Position numbers and translations under genes: made by a program. A model generated the notes under the pieces. That model made no database searches. It worked only from the letters and a program-made list of their open reading frames with translations, and had not been told where the DNA came from. A stretch of 64,000 nucleotides of DNA, from contig JBBDYC010000019.1 in the NCBI GenBank assembly GCA_040901985.1, positions 158,403-222,402 on the forward strand. The letters are read 5' to 3'. This document shows positions 3,588 through 55,693 of the stretch, in pieces; positions within the stretch are counted from its first letter, which is position 1; each line of letters starts with the position of its first letter. This DNA is from Gemmatimonadaceae bacterium. Lineage in GTDB: Bacteria > Gemmatimonadota > Gemmatimonadetes > Gemmatimonadales > Gemmatimonadaceae.

Positions 3588-3613
3588 AAGTCTCATTGCT
3601 CCCATCTCCCTGC

Positions 3614-3615
<2 letters not shown>
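3588..3615. repeat. Degenerate 7-nt-period tract at the ychF stop
   Basis: Minus strand GAGCAGG GAGATGG GAGCAAT GAGACTT. Confidence 0.45.
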
Positions 3616-4714
<1,099 letters not shown>

Positions 4715-4721
4715 CAGTTCT

Positions 4722-4761
4722 TCAGGTGTCAGGTATCAGGTATCAGGTGTCAGGTATCAGG
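4722..4761 (+). repeat. Tandem heptamer array (TCAGGTR)n, left arm
   Basis: TCAGGTG TCAGGTA TCAGGTA TCAGGTG TCAGGTA TCAGG. Confidence 0.97.
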
Positions 4762-4830
4762 AACAACGAAAGGTAGTGGGGGGTGGTGCAACGATGACGG
4801 TGCGGTGACGGCGTAGGCTGAGCTTGTGGC

Positions 4831-5283
4831 GTGTACCCGTTCCGTCGCCTCGCCGTCTGGGAGAAGGCGCATGCCCTGACGCTCCGGTGCTTCCAAGTCA
4901 CCGAATCGGTCACTGGGAGGCGCTTTCCTGGCCTTGTCGCTCAGTTCCGACGTGCGGTGGCGAGCATTCCCGCGAACATCGCGGAAGGGGCCGGACATTC
5001 GACCGATCCGCAATTCAATCGCTTTCTCGAGATCGCGATCGCGTCGTCGCTGGAAGCTGACTATCACCTCCTGCTCGCGCGCGACCTCGGGGTCATCTCA
5101 GGCAAGGACTATGCGCAACTCGAGGCCCGCCTCTCCGAGGTACGTCAGATGCTGACAGGACTGCGGAAACGCGTGCTGGAGCGAATGCGACTAGCAGGCA
5201 CGAGACGCGAAGGTGAACGACCAACGCGTGCAAGACGCACGGAAGCAGTAGGAGCGGAAAGAGCGGAGCGGAGCGAGATGTGA
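4831..5283 (+). CDS. Four-helix-bundle protein (23S rRNA IVP / TIGR02436-type, Avd-like fold)
   Basis: F.RL.VWEKAH.L...Q.RRA..SIPANIAEG......F.RFL.IA..S..E..Y.L.LARDLG.I....Y..L......V..ML.GL signature. Confidence 0.92.
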   Translation: MYPFRRLAVWEKAHALTLRCFQVTESVTGRRFPGLVAQFRRAVASIPANIAEGAGHSTDPQFNRFLEIAIASSLEADYHLLLARDLGVISGKDYAQLEARLSEVRQMLTGLRKRVLERMRLAGTRREGERPTRARRTEAVGAERAERSEM

Positions 5284-5291
5284 AAGGTGAA

Positions 5292-5320
5292 AGGGGGGAG
5301 GCCGTACCGGCCTCCCCCCT
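5292..5320. terminator. Perfect 13-bp GC hairpin inside the right end of the cassette
   Basis: AGGGGGGAGGCCG-TAC-CGGCCTCCCCCCT; followed by TTCACCTTTCAC on the minus strand. Confidence 0.6.
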
Positions 5321-5349
5321 GACACCTGACACCTGACACCTGACACCTG
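5318..5349 (+). repeat. Tandem heptamer array (CCTGACA)n, right arm, inverted relative to the left arm
   Basis: CCTGACA x4 + CCTG; reverse complement is (TGTCAGG)n. Confidence 0.97.
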
Positions 5350-5363
5350 CAGTTGTAGGAGTA

Positions 5364-7424
<2,061 letters not shown>

Positions 7425-9757: not shown

Positions 9758-9902
9758 TGGGAAGTCGTGTAAGGGTAACGCGAGACTGGAGATAGCCCGG
9801 TCGGCCGGGAGCCGGGCCAAGGGCGTCGGGAGAGCCCCGAAAGATATTCCGAAATGCCGGGGAATGGCAGGGGGCACCCACACCACGGTATTCTGTCGGG
9901 AT

Positions 9903-10802
9903 ATGAAAGGGATCCTCCTCGCCGGGGGCTCGGGCACGCGGCTCTTCCCGATGACCCGGGTCGTGTCGAAGCAGCTCCTCCCGGTCTACGACAAGCCGCT
10001 CGTCTACTATCCGCTGAGCACGCTGATGCTCGCGGGGATTCGCGACATTCTCCTCATCAGCACCCCCGACGACCTGCCGCGCTTCGAGGCGTTGCTCGGC
10101 GACGGGAGCGCGTGGGGAATCACCCTGCGCTACGCCGCGCAGCCGGCGCCGGAGGGCCTCGCGCAGGCGTTCGTGATCGGCCGCGACTTCGTCGGGCGCG
10201 ACCCGGTGGCGCTCATCCTCGGCGACAATCTCTTCTTCGGCGCCGGACTGCCGAGCCAGCTTCGCGTGGCGCGCGCGCGCGCCGAAGGGGCGTCGGGGGC
10301 CGGTGGGGCGACTGGAGCCACGATCTTCGGATACCGGGTCGGGAATCCGGAGCGGTACGGCGTGGTCGAGGTGGACAAGGCAGGGGCGGTACGGTCGATC
10401 GAGGAGAAGCCCCGCACGCCGCGGTCGTCCCTGGCGGTCACTGGGCTCTACTTCTATGACAACCGGGTGCTCCAGATCGCCGCGGGGCTGGGGAAATCGG
10501 CTCGCGGCGAGTACGAGATCACCGACGTCAACAACGCGTACCTGGCCGACGGGACGTTGCGGCTTGAGGTGCTGGGCCGCGGCATGGCCTGGCTTGACAC
10601 GGGTACGGTCGGCGCCCTGCAGGAGGCGGCGCGGTTCGTCGAGGCGATCGAGACGCGCCAGGGGCTCAAGATCTCGTGTCCGGAGGAGATCGCCTACCGC
10701 CTAGGCTACATCGGGCGCGCGCAGCTGCTCGCGCTCGCGGCGCCTCTCGGCCCCAGCGAGTACGGGGCATACCTTCGTCGCGTGGCCGAGGAGGCGGAGT
10801 GA
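9903..10802 (+). CDS. rmlA: Glucose-1-phosphate thymidylyltransferase
   Basis: [17 protein letters not shown]...[29 protein letters not shown]. Confidence 0.97.
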
Positions 10803-11905
10803 GCGCGCGCGGCGGGACGACGCGTCCGGTGCCGGAGGTGGTGCTGGTGACAGGGGGCGCCGGCTTCATCGGGGCGAATGCGGTGGGCTGGCTCCTCCGT
10901 CAACAGCCGACGGTGCGCGTGATCACGTACGATGCGATGACCTACGCGGCGCATCCCGAGACCCTGCCGATGGTCACCGCGGGCGCGGCGGACCGGCATC
11001 ACCTGGTCCGCGCCGACGTGCGGGACCGCGAGGCGCTCTCCGCGGTCCTCGGCGGCACGGCGCGCGACGGCGCGGGACGCGCGGTCCCGGTGCCGGACAC
11101 GGTCTGGCACCTCGCCGCCGAATCACACGTGGACCGCTCGATCCTCGGGCCCGATGCCTTCGTCGAGACGAACATCGTCGGCACCGAGCGGCTGCTCGAG
11201 GCGATGCGCCGTGCGCGGGGCGTCGGCCACCGGCCACTGCGCCTCGTGCACGTGAGCACCGATGAGGTCTACGGGTCGCTGGAGCCGCTCGACGCGCCGT
11301 TCACGGAAGCGCGGGCGCTGGCGCCGAGTTCGCCGTACGCGGCGAGCAAGGCGGCGGCGGACCTGCTGGTGCAGGCGTGGGCGCGCACGTACGGCCTCGA
11401 CGCCGTGATCACGCGCTGCTCGAACAACTACGGACCGTTCCAGTTCCCGGAGAAGCTCCTGCCGCTGATGGTCACGCGCGCGCTGGCCGGCGAACCGCTC
11501 CCGGTCTACGGCGATGGCCGGCAGGTGCGGGACTGGCTGCACGCCGAGGACCACGTCGCGGCGCTCTGGGCCGTCACCTGCCAGGGGGGAAGCGAGGGGC
11601 GCGTCTACAACATCGGCGGCAACGCCGAACGCGAGAACCTCGCGATCGTCCGGGCTGTGCTGCGCGCCCTGGGCAAGGACGAGTCGCTGATCGCCCACGT
11701 GCGCGACCGGCCGGCGCACGACCGGCGGTACGCGATGGACGCCAGCCGGCTGCGCGCCGAGACCGACTGGCGCCCGCGCATCGCGCTCGACGACGGGCTC
11801 GCCGCGACAGTCGAGTGGTACGTGACCCACGAGCCGTGGTGGCGCGCGGTGCAGCGGGAGTCGGCGGTGGCCGCCGAGGCGCTCTACCTCGGGACGAAGG
11901 CGTGA
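10799..11905 (+). CDS. rmlB: dTDP-glucose 4,6-dehydratase
   Basis: [50 protein letters not shown] overlaps the rmlA stop. Confidence 0.96.
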
Positions 11906-12756
11906 AGGTCCTCGCGATCGGTGCCCACGGGCTGCTCGGCACCGCCTTCCGCGACACGGCGCCGACGGACGTGACGCTGATTGCGCCGCCGCACCGCGAG
12001 CTCGACCTGACCGACGCCGACGCGGTGGCGCGCGCGCTCGACCAGGCCGAGCCGGCGTGGGTGGTGAACTGCGCGGCGTTCACGGCCGTGGACGCGGCGG
12101 AGCAGGATCCGGAGGCGGCGGCGCGCCTGAACGCCGACGCGGTCGGGGCGCTCGGCCGCCTCGCCGCCGCGCGCGGCGTGCGGGTCCTCCTTCCCGGGAC
12201 GGACTATTTGTTTGCCGGCGAGTCCACGCGCCCGTATCGTGAGGACGACCTACCGCAGCCGCGTTCGGTCTACGCGCGCACGAAGTGGGAGGGGGAACAG
12301 CTCCTGCAGGCGAGCGGCGCTCGCGCGCTCATCGTGCGCAGCGGATGGCTGTTCGGTCGCGGGGGGCGGAACTTCCCGGCGACGATGTGGGCCCGCGCGC
12401 GCGCACACACGCCCTCGGCGGTGGTGGACGACCAGCGGGGCGCGCCGACCGCGGCGCTCGACCTCGCCGAATGGTGTTGGCGCCTGATTGGACGCGGCGA
12501 CGACGGCGTGGTGCACGCGACCAACGCCGGGTCGGCGACCTGGTTCGAGGTGGCGCAGGCGGCGTACGCGGCGGCCGCGTGGCCCGAGGGCGTGACCGTC
12601 ACGACCACCGCCGCCTTCGGTGCCCGCGCCAACCGCCCGCGCTACAGCGTGCTCGACTGCTCGCGCTTCGACGAGCGGTGCCCGGGCGGTCGTCGCGACT
12701 GGCGCGAGGCGCTCGCGCAGTACCTCGGGACGCTCGGCGCGGAGCGGGCGGCGTGA
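11902..12756 (+). CDS. rmlD: dTDP-4-dehydrorhamnose reductase
   Basis: GAHGLLG, NCAAFTAVDAAE, TDY.F.G, Y..TK..GE, VDDQ.G.PT. Confidence 0.93.
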   Translation: MKVLAIGAHGLLGTAFRDTAPTDVTLIAPPHRELDLTDADAVARALDQAEPAWVVNCAAFTAVDAAEQDPEAAARLNADAVGALGRLAAARGVRVLLPGTDYLFAGESTRPYREDDLPQPRSVYARTKWEGEQLLQASGARALIVRSGWLFGRGGRNFPATMWARARAHTPSAVVDDQRGAPTAALDLAEWCWRLIGRGDDGVVHATNAGSATWFEVAQAAYAAAAWPEGVTVTTTAAFGARANRPRYSVLDCSRFDERCPGGRRDWREALAQYLGTLGAERAA

Positions 12757-15343: not shown

Positions 15344-16879
15344 TCAGTCCGCCGCTGCGAGCTGCAGCAGGTCGTACAGTTCGGCGAGGGTCTGTGGGTC
15401 CGGCGCGCCGTCCGCCGTCCGCAGCTCCTCGCCGAGCGCAGCGGCCCGGGCGAGCGCATCGCGGCCGCGGAAGAGGAGCTCGTCAATCGGGATGACATCG
15501 TCCTCCGGACCGACGAGGGGCTCGGCGAGATGCTCGGTGGCGAGCGGCGCGAGTCCGTCGAGTCCGGACGCGAGGAGTCCGTGGAGGGCGGCGCCGGACA
15601 GGGCGGCGCCGGTCGTGGGCCCGCCGGTCGTGGGCCCGCCGGTCGTGGGCCCGCCGGTCGTGGCGGCGGCGGACGGGGCGCCGCCGGCGACCGTGGCCGT
15701 GGAAAGCTCGGCGCTCAATGCACCGAAGGACGCCGTGAGGGAACTCGGCTCGACCTCGGACGCGCTGAGCAGGGCCGCCGCCCGGTCGAGGACGTCGAGC
15801 GTGTGCGCCTCGAGCGCGGCGGCATTTCGCTCGGCGGCGATGAACACGTTGGCTATCTCGGTCGCGCCGAAACTCTGGGCGGCGCGGGCGATGGCGCGCA
15901 CGGCGCCCCGCAGTTCGCGGCTCAGGCGCTCCCGCGTCGCGGCATCGGCGGCGCCGCGACCGTCGGCGACAAGGCGCCGCAGGTGCTCGGCCTGGCTCAC
16001 CACCTCGAGACGGAACCGGTTGGCAGAGGTGGTCGGCGGATGCGACGCGGACTGGACTGCGCCGCCCGCGGCGTCGTCGGGGAAGAGGGAGGCGATCGGC
16101 ACGACGTCGTCGCCGTCCCCCGCGTCGCGGCTCAGCGTGGCGGAGGCGTGGGCGAACTCGCGCACGGCGACCGAATCCGTCGGGGGCACCCCGCCGTTGC
16201 GGATGGCGTCGCCGCCTTCGAGGAGGACGCGGGCGGCGGTGCGGAAGAGCCGTCGCCGTTCGGCGGTCGCATCCTCGTGCCCGAGTTCGATTGCCTTGGC
16301 GGCGGCGTCCACGGCGTCCACGACCTCGCTGAGCGGCGGCAGGTCCTTGAGCGCGGCGACGCCGCGCAGGGCGCGGACCTTGCCCATCACGTCGCCGAAG
16401 CCCTCCCGCGACCCGGGTTGCTCGGCGTACTCGAGGAGTCCGGCGGCCGCGTCGGTGGCCGCGGCGGCGAGGTAAGCGGCACCGCTCTTGGCCGGCTCGG
16501 CGCTGGCGCGCTTCGGCGCGATCCGCTCGAGTTCGGCAATCCGCTCCGCGGCGCGCGCATCCTCGGCGGGTCCCCAGGTGCGGACGCCGCGGATGAGGAT
16601 CTTGGCGTCGTCAATCGCGGCGATCGCGACGCCGCGCGACGACGCATCCCAGGCGAGGTCACCGTCGCGGACGCGCCGGGCGAGCCGCTCGAGGCCGTGG
16701 GCGACCTCGGCGACGCCGTTCACCTTGGCCATCGTCGCGCTGCCGCGGAGCGCGCGGATCGTGCGCGCGAAGGCGTCCGCGTCGGGCGGGGCCGCCGACG
16801 CGCGCGACACGAGGGCGTCGAGCTGCTCGACGTACTCGCTGGCCTCCAAGGTGAAGAAATCGAGCAATCCGCCCGTCAT
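15344..16879 (-). CDS. Multi-Hpt-like helical protein lacking the phosphoacceptor His
   Basis: N-terminal F..EA.EY...L...RALRGSA.MA....V..VA..LE resembles a CheA-P1/Hpt bundle. Confidence 0.7.
   Translation of the reverse strand: MTGGLLDFFTLEASEYVEQLDALVSRASAAPPDADAFARTIRALRGSATMAKVNGVAEVAHGLERLARRVRDGDLAWDASSRGVAIAAIDDAKILIRGVRTWGPAEDARAAERIAELERIAPKRASAEPAKSGAAYLAAAATDAAAGLLEYAEQPGSREGFGDVMGKVRALRGVAALKDLPPLSEVVDAVDAAAKAIELGHEDATAERRRLFRTAARVLLEGGDAIRNGGVPPTDSVAVREFAHASATLSRDAGDGDDVVPIASLFPDDAAGGAVQSASHPPTTSANRFRLEVVSQAEHLRRLVADGRGAADAATRERLSRELRGAVRAIARAAQSFGATEIANVFIAAERNAAALEAHTLDVLDRAAALLSASEVEPSSLTASFGALSAELSTATVAGGAPSAAATTGGPTTGGPTTGGPTTGAALSGAALHGLLASGLDGLAPLATEHLAEPLVGPEDDVIPIDELLFRGRDALARAAALGEELRTADGAPDPQTLAELYDLLQLAAAD
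15607..15663. repeat. In-frame 15-bp tandem repeat (TTGGP)n
   Basis: CGCCGGTCGTGGGCC x3.8. Confidence 0.92.
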
Positions 16880-48812: not shown

Positions 48813-49475
48813 CTACCGGCGATCGCGGACGCGGATCCGTTGGCGGACGGCGGTGACGCCGGGCACACCGCCGGCGATGGTCACGGCGTGCGACACCTCT
48901 CGCGCGGTGAGGACCTGGCCGTGGAGGAAGACGGCCCCCTGGGTGTCGGCGTCAATCTCGACCGCCCGCTTGGAGAGGATCGGGTCGTTGAGGAAGGCCT
49001 CGAGGACCCGGGTGCCAATCACGTCGTCGGAGGCGTCCTCGTCGGCGTCCTCGGCTTCGTCCTCACCTTCCTCCTCCTCCTCCTCGTCCTCGTCGTCGTC
49101 TTCTTCTTCTTCTTCGTCCGCTTCATCGAGGTCCTCGTCGAGGTCCTCGTCCAACTCCTCGTCGCCGTCGTCCGCGAACTCGCCGAACTCGTCGGCTTCG
49201 TCGTATTCGTCCTCGGCGAGGGCGAGCGCCTCGGCGCGCCGCTCGGCCCAACGCTCGCGGAGTTCGAGCGCCAGCTCGATCAACGGGACCCATTGACCGG
49301 CGGCGACCTTGGCGACGGAACGCGCGCGCCGCCACAGCGTGTGCGCACTGGCGCGCCGACCGCTCAGGCGCTCGGACACGAGGATTCCCGCGCCAAGGCC
49401 GACGGCCGTTCCGGCAAGGGTCCAGAGGACCCAGTGGCTCCGCGTGGACTTTTCCTCGATCTCGACGATGCGCAT
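48813..49475 (-). CDS. BON-domain protein with N-terminal TM and a long acidic linker
   Basis: TM 14-32; 64-aa D/E tract; C-terminal G.V.L.G.V...A..IA..VPGV..V BON motif. Confidence 0.78.
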   Translation of the reverse strand: MRIVEIEEKSTRSHWVLWTLAGTAVGLGAGILVSERLSGRRASAHTLWRRARSVAKVAAGQWVPLIELALELRERWAERRAEALALAEDEYDEADEFGEFADDGDEELDEDLDEDLDEADEEEEEDDDEDEEEEEEGEDEAEDADEDASDDVIGTRVLEAFLNDPILSKRAVEIDADTQGAVFLHGQVLTAREVSHAVTIAGGVPGVTAVRQRIRVRDRR

Positions 49476-55632: not shown

Positions 55633-55693
55633 GAGGAGCGCGATCCGGCGTGACCTCGCATCTGCCAGTTCCCATCTCCCATCTTTATTTCCC

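Follow-up and report, generated by a model that had tools for sequence, protein, structure and literature searches.

Structure of the hppA–ychF cassette

The analyzed window, a DNA stretch of 64,000 nucleotides, harbors a short cassette between the host genes ychF and hppA, both located on the minus strand, and the four-helix-bundle (4HB) gene of this cassette is antisense to both neighbors (Table 1). A preliminary description of this DNA had reported heptamer arrays at both ends of the segment, a 4HB gene opposite in strand to hppA and ychF, and the pentamer CAGTT at both outer borders. All of these features were found (the right CAGTT copy being located at positions 5350–5354), and removal of positions 4720–5354 indeed yields the claimed 14-nt spacer. 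In the following, the inverted arrays bordering the gene are termed arms, and the sequence of their repeat unit is termed the word. A contig of run X1, possibly the source sample, is identical to window positions 4300–5347, with zero differences.

Table 1. Features of the cassette and its flanking genes (window coordinates)
Feature	Position	Strand	Remarks
ychF, flanking host gene	3614–4714	-	TIGR00092 match
CAGTT, left copy	4715–4719	+	proposed target duplication; judged coincidental
Heptamer arm (TCAGGTR)x5.7	4722–4761	+	purine-rich strand directed away from ychF
-10-like box TACCTT	4770–4775	-	conserved; predicted promoter of ychF, next to the inner end of the arm; putative function
-10-like box TAGGCT	4814–4819	+	predicted 4HB gene promoter, 11 nt before GTG; putative function
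4HB gene, S23p/IVP, Avd-like, 150 aa	4831–5283	+	PF05635, E 4.5e-29; TIGR02436, 98 bits (cut-off 24)
Second heptamer GTGAAAG, two units	5280–5294	+	same word class as the arms of locus L094
G+C hairpin	5292–5320		conserved in orthologues; lies between hppA and the 4HB gene and is predicted to terminate transcription in both directions
Heptamer arm (TGTCAGG)x4.6	5318–5349	-	equals (CCTGACA)x4.6 on the plus strand; purine-rich strand directed away from hppA
Outer-end motif AACTGCAG	5347–5354	-	includes the right CAGTT copy
hppA, membrane pyrophosphatase, flanking host gene	5364–7424	-	right-hand neighbor of the cassette

The two arms can pair on the minus strand over 32 uninterrupted pairs, 29–30 of them Watson–Crick and 2–3 G.U (fold z −7.0), and the ychF-proximal arm, read on this strand, represents the predicted ychF 5' leader. 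A TAYVTT box within 130 nt of the ychF start was found in 38 of 45 junctions (a raw count, with no background rate computed). A YAnnnT box lies 5–8 nt ahead of the 4HB start in 36 of 39 orthologues, compared with a background of 4%; the spacing between box and start in the window exceeds that of the typical orthologue. Sigma-70 and terminator scans of the cassette region returned no calls, the TACCTT box and the hairpin included. The two GTGAAAG units, as judged from their word class, are possibly the remnant of an earlier cassette type. The Rfam search gave no match at gathering score, with weak miRNA-type hairpin matches far below it, and no known defence protein or RNA family was found in the cassette.

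The PF05635 family is represented by one copy in the window genome, which is rated 99.97% complete, and the nearest relatives are labelled Gemmatimonas or Gemmatimonadaceae. To our knowledge, members of this family feature no recognised catalytic or enzyme motif. The predicted structure (pLDDT 94) matches the fold of XCC0516/2GSC (TM 0.88), BT_0352/2RLD and the DGR accessory protein Avd (TM 0.75–0.77 to the structures 4DWL, 8UB7, and 8UBE, at 12% sequence identity). 2GSC is described as a homopentamer (PMC4990558). For Avd, RNA binding has been described, in which all five protomers contact a stem-loop and flipped-out bases enter crevices between the protomers (bioRxiv 10.1101/2023.10.23.563531). 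The residues N49 and E52 are invariant in the 4HB alignment A1, and dN/dS values of 0.04–0.33 in 11 of the 12 closest 4HB pairs, with a dN of 0 in the twelfth, indicate purifying selection on the gene. Helix-4 motifs were rejected as specificity residues: they track the word classes, but are confounded with descent and absent in distant proteins having the same word (L060). A distant, arm-less 4HB gene with 38% identity precedes ychF in G018 (L005), where hppA is not located within 1.5 kb.

Apart from the cassette, the window contains a 15-bp repeat with 6.8 copies (15586–15687) and acidic low-complexity repeats (49022–49211), both apparently coding. Furthermore, a sugar-nucleotide cluster resembling rfbA/rfbB/rfbD, judged from translations, starts on the plus strand beside prs (9864–12756).

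Cassette replacement at the hppA–ychF junction

In the preliminary description, the segment was interpreted as a recent insertion of a transposon-like element with heptamer terminal repeats, placed between hppA and ychF with a 5-bp target duplication. The flanking CAGTT copies and the inverted arms agree with this reading, and gene-less arrays elsewhere feature filled and empty alleles (at the rpsD site and at the ychF stop of G063 versus G062), so that arrays must once have reached new sites. However, the 4HB gene was present in 39 of 45 distinct Gemmatimonadota hppA–ychF junctions, and a word of at least five nucleotides common to both ends occurred in 2 of the 39 orthologous cassettes, compared with 9.5% of mismatched pairs. 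Among the 45 junctions, AACTG directly ahead of the ychF start is confined to the window. The left CAGTT copy overlaps the commonest ychF start context, CTGATG (12 of 45 junctions), and the right copy belongs to the motif AAC(T/G)GC, which follows the stop codon of hppA in 11 of the 45. Motifs related to the outer end accompany 14 of 52 arrays of the window genome, compared with 6.7% of random 22-mers. Judged from these counts, the direct repeat is a chance occurrence.

The empty site predicted from the window was not recovered either. None of the six gene-less junctions (L006, L027, L028, L040, L045, and L048) showed the 14-nt single-copy form; they are 75–192 nt long and retain a hairpin, a promoter-like box or heptamer arms. 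The gene-less relatives hence exhibit another junction, an outcome which the preliminary description itself had named as speaking against the insertion. No contig joint at 4719/5355, representing an excised or empty form, was detected in four public runs, and the array-to-array joints seen in X1, spanning at most 33 nt per side with few other letters between, fit gene-less pairs elsewhere. The evidence was drawn from runs other than those with small shares, and no RNA contig (run X15) extends over the 4HB gene. Filled rpsD sites showed no duplication by eye. No transposase was found in the cassette, and the window genome, searched for Y1_Tnp among the transposase families, yielded no match to it and none to the reverse transcriptase family RVT_1 (PF00078). 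The insertion reading is largely refuted by these results and was considered extremely improbable. What was borne out, by the same-site replacement described below, is the claim that the gene and its inverted arms move as one unit without a transposase of their own. The definition of the element by its heptamer ends held in part: the arms do border the cassette, but they are not peculiar to it, as approximately 50 intergenic arrays of the same family occur elsewhere in the genome.

Among 14 genomes of two other families, 12 had a different gene before ychF, and two had the hppA–ychF arrangement with heptamer arms and no gene. The distribution over all junctions indicates that the cassette is old at this site. 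Its mobility there consists of same-site replacement, not of insertion at new sites. In AU tests on 30 loci with sufficient flank, the 4HB alignment rejected the host trees (delta logL 446–617), and the 4HB tree had 3–4 of 27 splits in common with them, compared with 8 of 27 for the ychF and hppA trees. The latter two also reject each other, more weakly (delta logL 124–167), which points to a high level of background recombination. A Mantel test (rho 0.06, p 0.24) was uninformative, since the ychF–hppA distances also correlate poorly (0.21).

Host sisters gave the clearest picture, with flanks being 94–97% identical and 4HB genes 63–74%: L020/L096 (flanks 96.7%, gene 74%) and L109/L116 (95.4%, 63%) each feature different words, and the same applies to the host sisters L013 (AGGTGKG), L029 (AGATGKR), and L111 (AGGMTGR) (L013/L029: 94.3%, 71%). 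Concordant pairs were found as well (L014/L106 with 96% flank and 99% gene identity; L008/L012 with 91% and 87%). The unlinked genes gyrB and rpoB confirmed the host-sister relations; an array scan around these two loci returned none. Sister identity remains high up to the last hppA codons and amounts to 0.84 in nucleotides 1–60 of ychF compared with 0.88–0.94 further in. According to this profile, the crossovers lie no further than approximately 60 nt from the flanking genes, and in the relatives the exchanged tract includes the initial ~60 nt of ychF. The heptamer word tracks the 4HB gene clade, and the clade-specific protein motifs would not have arisen twice by mutation alone. The sequence comparisons thus show an exchange of the cassette as a unit between species at hppA–ychF, and plain vertical inheritance is ruled out by the tree tests, the sister pairs and gyrB/rpoB. 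The match between word and gene at the cassette itself represents linkage, and alone says nothing on specificity. In genomes of the Ignavibacteria type (L122–L135), a cassette with GAGTATT-type arms occupies one conserved operon junction.

Gene-less arrays and the resident word

Flanks of 4HB genes were compared over 61 non-orthologous loci, not all of them independent, from Gemmatimonadota, Ignavibacteria, Bacteroidota, Chloroflexi, Acidobacteria, and further groups; short flanks led to the exclusion of 5 of 105 distinct loci. As the preliminary description had suggested looking for, flanking arrays were common: upstream and downstream flanks formed a stem with a score of at least 14 in 44 of the 61 loci, compared with 9 of 250 crossed pairs. 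Among the 47 loci scoring at least 12, period 7 was found in 30 and period 8 in 11, and the 5' arm was G-rich in 42. In orthologous loci, the ungapped stem search reached 14 in 18 of 39, with coding-region noise in about half, and the arms were therefore read separately. Flanking by arrays is a well supported general trait of the 4HB family. Some loci have arms built of 8-mers, 9-mers or 6-mers (L064, L066, L068, L070, L072, L075, L076, L080, L081, L086, and L089; L085; L140), which suggests that the repeat period can change, and L083 and L130 have long non-periodic inverted arms. The Coxiella S23p intervening sequence (IVS) has a 28-bp stem that contains three to four tandem heptamers and is cleaved by RNase III (PMC4990558), and according to the supplement of PMC4692102, the gene of the solved pentamer XCC0516 abuts a GGGAATC array (repeat 15).

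In the window genome, 35 period-7 arrays reached a score of at least 14, compared with 0–2 for periods 4, 5, 8, 10, and 13; period 7 is far above chance. At a score of at least 10, approximately 50 arrays are intergenic according to our own gene caller; for most of them the nearest start or stop is no more than 15 nt away, and many adjoin housekeeping genes. Array length peaks at 4–5 units (31 of 50), and the density is 20.4 per Mb. The purine-rich strand leads away from the adjoining gene irrespective of the orientation of the latter: G-rich arrays lie at left edges in 17 cases and at right edges in two, C-rich arrays at right edges in 17 and at left edges in four, and neighboring inverted pairs follow the order G-then-C eight times and C-then-G never. 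G-quadruplex formation was rejected as a general cause, as the words TCAGGTR and TGAGACK, by inspection, have no G3 runs.

Several arrays deserve separate mention. The largest gene-less pair of the genome (G000:C9:189892–190060) has arms of 74 and 66 nt with the window word and a 29-nt loop. Two contigs terminate within perfect (CACACCT)n arrays (G000:C5:1–44 and C6:122324–122378), indicating that assemblies are interrupted at arrays and that counts from draft genomes may be too low. Within the window, a decayed AGATG-like arm lies 3' of the ychF stop (3592–3613), and a degenerate C-rich arm of 4.3 CTCCCAT units, a non-resident word, is found just ahead of a start codon (55655–55684). In a tRNA cluster of G032 (L223; C18:328500–333000), nearly every spacer carries a C-rich heptamer arm, with two words being represented.

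The main feature, absent from the preliminary description, is that gene-less arrays throughout the genome follow the resident cassette. Six patterns were drawn from cassette arms ahead of the search, two being run with one mismatch and four with none; the counts are overlapping windows including the cassette's own arms, the patterns were run on differing sets of genomes, and all genomes are metagenome assemblies. TCAGGTR was counted 40 times in the window genome, 29 times each in G001 and G034, 33 times in G036, and 10 times in G015, with 23 other genomes at 0. For TGAGACK, the counts were 327 (G011), 181 (G004), 161 (G022), 50 (G016), and 6 (G031), again with 23 others at 0. G026, nested among the TGAGACK hosts and bearing another cassette, has 0 TGAGACK and 22 copies of its own word. 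Counts of the resident words were 105, 43, and 42 in G009, G033, and G064, a host clade in which words of kin linger at lower counts. Overall, the resident word was top or tied among the six in 25 of 29 genomes, the fits being weak for G000 and G034 (unequal mismatch settings) and G062 (counts of 1), and the misfits being G027, G069, G061, and G020. Three genomes with no PF05635 match (G013, G024, and G035) had 0 for all six words; G015 has arrays, and no 4HB gene was found in this 88% complete assembly. These counts suggest that gene-less arrays mostly carry the word of the resident cassette.

Replacement of the word at individual sites was followed in the sister genomes G032 (AGATG cassette) and G065 (AGGTG), where 38 of 64 G032 sites, taken from pattern hits, were mapped to G065 by anchors on either side. 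The word differed at 21 of the 38 sites, each time toward the own cassette and never against it, and 17 sites were unchanged or unclear; this count comes from one sister pair, whose words are one base apart. Often both arms change while the inner hairpin remains homologous with compensating changes, and some pairs are mixed, their two arms carrying different words. Within 60 nt, divergence was 10–12.5% at the 21 changed sites compared with 2.5–5.4% at 16 unchanged ones (one with Ns being left out); beyond 90 nt, it was 3–5% at both. The level of 10–12% corresponds to the between-species distance in the genus. The divergent flanks and the diverged but homologous hairpins are as expected of a short tract received from another species.

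Single sites add to this picture. The rpsD stop site was empty in 8 of 29 genomes (five of the gene-bearing genomes among those with an empty site), decayed in one (G035) and filled in 20, and 17 of the filled sites matched the resident word by eye, the exceptions being G026 (a one-base variant), G025, and G027. The rpsD insert of G009 has an identity of 0.77 to that of the distant G007 (gene body 0.88) and of 0.49–0.57 to close kin (gene body 0.96–0.97); G009 and G007 have an identical inner hairpin, which is missing from closer kin. The likeness of the G011 rpsD insert to those of G016 and G022 could be retained ancestry. At lepA, few genomes have a filled site, and G009 holds a non-resident word there, and a ~60-nt hairpin of G063's word at the ychF stop of G063 is absent in its sister G062. 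Within this one genus, the comparisons provide good support for cassette swapping with genome-wide retyping of arrays.

Retyping might also proceed within a genome: gene conversion or template switching would copy arms of the cassette or of other arrays, and the neighborhood would be resynthesized in an error-prone manner, so that gene-less sites need no foreign donor. Variant order is matched between the arms of a locus (32 of 32 in L026; likewise in L025 and L070), many G032 arms carry a near-identical string of ~35 nt, and mixed-word pairs are found. Furthermore, GC3 over the last 10 codons drops by 0.10 beside arrays compared with 0.05 in controls (23 versus 630 genes, p 0.004), and synonymous divergence of the 4HB gene is inflated even in the concordant pair L016/L018 (dS 1.68 versus 0.32–0.36); the raised dS and the GC3 drop indicate that local hypermutation contributes. 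Together with the possibly retained rpsD ancestry, the GC3 sag and the common arm string count against a pure donor model. However, the homologous inner hairpins with compensating changes at changed sites require long divergence, the identical rpsD hairpin of G009 and G007 is missing from closer kin, the flank differences are unpolarised (100 versus 89), and the window genome has no RVT_1. Within-genome rewriting as the principal process was regarded as improbable.

Natural losses of the gene also bear on the role of the protein. In G020, the 4HB gene is in place, N49, E52, and E75 are lost, the arms are decayed, and the genome has a second weak PF05635 match; 0 period-7 arrays were found in 278 kb, where ~5.7 would be expected at the density of the window genome. 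G035, having no gene, showed one array in 366 kb, outside the family (~7.5 expected), and G033 with an intact gene had five arrays in 144 kb, three of them of the family. The loss samples amount to 8% and 16% of the two genomes, and within these portions hardly any arrays remain where the 4HB gene is missing or its invariant residues are lost. The gene might nonetheless be a passenger in one array-bounded segment, the word being set by a factor elsewhere. In favor of this, the cassette is exchanged as any array-bounded segment would be, G027, G069, and G061 carry mismatched words, and the family has no recognised enzyme motif; against it, the family is array-flanked across phyla, the multi-copy genome G039 has a separate word at each of its loci, and arrays dwindle in G020, whose gene has decayed at its site, and in G035, which has none. 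A mere passenger role was judged very unlikely. As cassette versions differ at one site and the gene-less repeats match the resident version, the protein likely recognises its own repeat.

Proposed mechanism and relation to known systems

In the favored reading, considered about as likely as not, the window cassette is the only copy with a gene within a family of intergenic segments that have heptamer arms, and its Avd-like protein would bind its own arms of 4–5 units and thereby bias host recombination toward alleles with matching arms. Points against this reading are the missing catalytic motif, the four misfitting genomes, the 17 sites without a change of word, the empty rpsD site in five gene-bearing genomes, the high background recombination, the second weak PF05635 match in G020 and the arrays of G015. 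By analogy with 2GSC and Avd, the 4HB protein would assemble into a pentameric ring, and each subunit of this ring could read one heptamer, the nucleic acid being single-stranded or folded into a hairpin. The protein might then protect or load matching incoming DNA, or leave non-matching hairpins for cutting and repair, while host enzymes would perform the exchange, its outcome being tilted to alleles with the own word. Binding of one repeat per subunit by a protein ring is familiar from TRAP, and cutting of hairpins from SbcCD, both serving here as analogies. The gene comEC is present in the window genome. A resident reverse transcriptase or RAYT was rejected as the motor, neither being found in this genome. 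In a broader and more tentative form of the proposal, a selfish system with neither transposase nor reverse transcriptase would employ an Avd-like ring reading a heptamer code, driving homing-like interspecies replacement of dozens of intergenic segments; a new cassette would rewrite the repeat dialect of the chromosome, and the 23S IVS as well as the bacterial heptamer excess would be its products.

The main rival is a host benefit via RNA, and the sequence data alone do not separate it from biased recombination. According to this explanation, the protein binds transcribed arms, located in leaders, 3' ends or tRNA spacers, or else RNase III stems are formed by the arms; following a cassette swap, selection sorts matching alleles from ordinary recombination between species, which itself is unbiased. 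It would account for the position of arrays 0–15 nt from a gene start or stop, in many cases that of a housekeeping gene, and for the window stem being perfect on the host-sense strand only. The heptamer stem of the Coxiella S23p IVS cut by RNase III, the RNA binding by Avd and the purifying selection on the 4HB gene also agree with it. However, selection for an RNA stem of the host strand via G.U pairs, which holds for the window, was rejected across loci, where G.U was not favored over A.C (54:57 and 16:22). A hairpin and the predicted ychF promoter lie between the arms, which may rarely be co-transcribed; moreover, gene-less and array-less relatives exist, the rpsD site being empty in several genomes, and the polarity rule is independent of gene orientation. 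This explanation was considered rather unlikely.

Should recombination indeed be biased by the 4HB protein, an explanation would be at hand for the surprisingly high number of 7-base repeats in bacterial genomes, and a new route of gene flow to promoters, leaders, and terminators of core genes (rpsD, lepA, ychF, tRNA clusters) would be indicated. The proposal joins two questions, namely the role of the S23p/IVP 4HB protein and the heptamer excess between bacterial genes, and natural protein–word pairs (at least six in one genus) as well as natural loss-of-function alleles make both testable. It would furthermore suggest an origin of the DGR accessory protein, and the protein could serve as a small, retargetable tool for reading repeated words in nucleic acids. 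Each of the parts is known by itself; the coupling of cassette swapping with genome-wide retyping, and a link between 4HB proteins and genome-wide heptamer arrays, were not found described in the literature searched, which left out most subscription papers.

Among known systems, the cassette differs in a defining property from each of IVS, RAYT–REPIN, DUS/ComP, IS/MITE and DGR. The 23S rRNA IVS with an S23p ORF in Coxiella burnetii and Leptospira (PMC4990558) likewise encodes a PF05635 protein of similar size and features complementary ends of ~30 bp. Unlike these, the window cassette lies between protein genes in antisense orientation, with a predicted promoter of its own and an internal hairpin, is swapped between species, and is matched by gene-less arrays throughout the genome. 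RAYT–REPIN systems (bioRxiv 10.1101/2021.07.10.451892) also combine a single-copy master at a fixed extragenic site with matching inverted-repeat satellites, and the satellites decay on loss of the master, with which the partial samples of G035 and G020 agree. In contrast, the cassette master is not a Y1/HUH transposase, and the arms are tandem heptamers; RAYT trees follow the host, whereas the 4HB master is exchanged horizontally and satellites are retyped at the same sites.

The heptameric repeats which Rehm et al. (2015, PMC4692102) described in Xanthomonas and Nostoc correspond to the arrays described here in their period of 7, intergenic location within 50 bp of gene ends, polarity and frequent inverted pairs. 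In that work the heptamers are interpreted as G-quadruplex formers, and its main text contains no mention of four-helix or S23 proteins. DUS/ComP of Neisseriaceae (PMC3630211) have in common with the arrays the lineage dialects tied to one binding protein (here proposed) and the inverted pairs after genes, and the spread of DUS is ascribed there to biased recombination. DUS are single 10–12-mers that number in the thousands, occur also in coding DNA and follow the core-genome tree; here, by contrast, ~50 tandem arrays, nearly all intergenic, show a distribution incongruent with the host tree, and the protein, judged from its family, is cytoplasmic. Compared with IS/MITE elements, the cassette has neither a target-site duplication nor a matching empty allele. 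Finally, DGR/Avd systems (bioRxiv 10.1101/2023.10.23.563531) feature the same fold, a stem-loop-binding pentamer and in-place locus replacement, the pentamer and the binding being predicted for the window protein; DGR differ in their RVT_1 reverse transcriptase, which the window genome does not encode, and in the low sequence identity between Avd and the 4HB protein.
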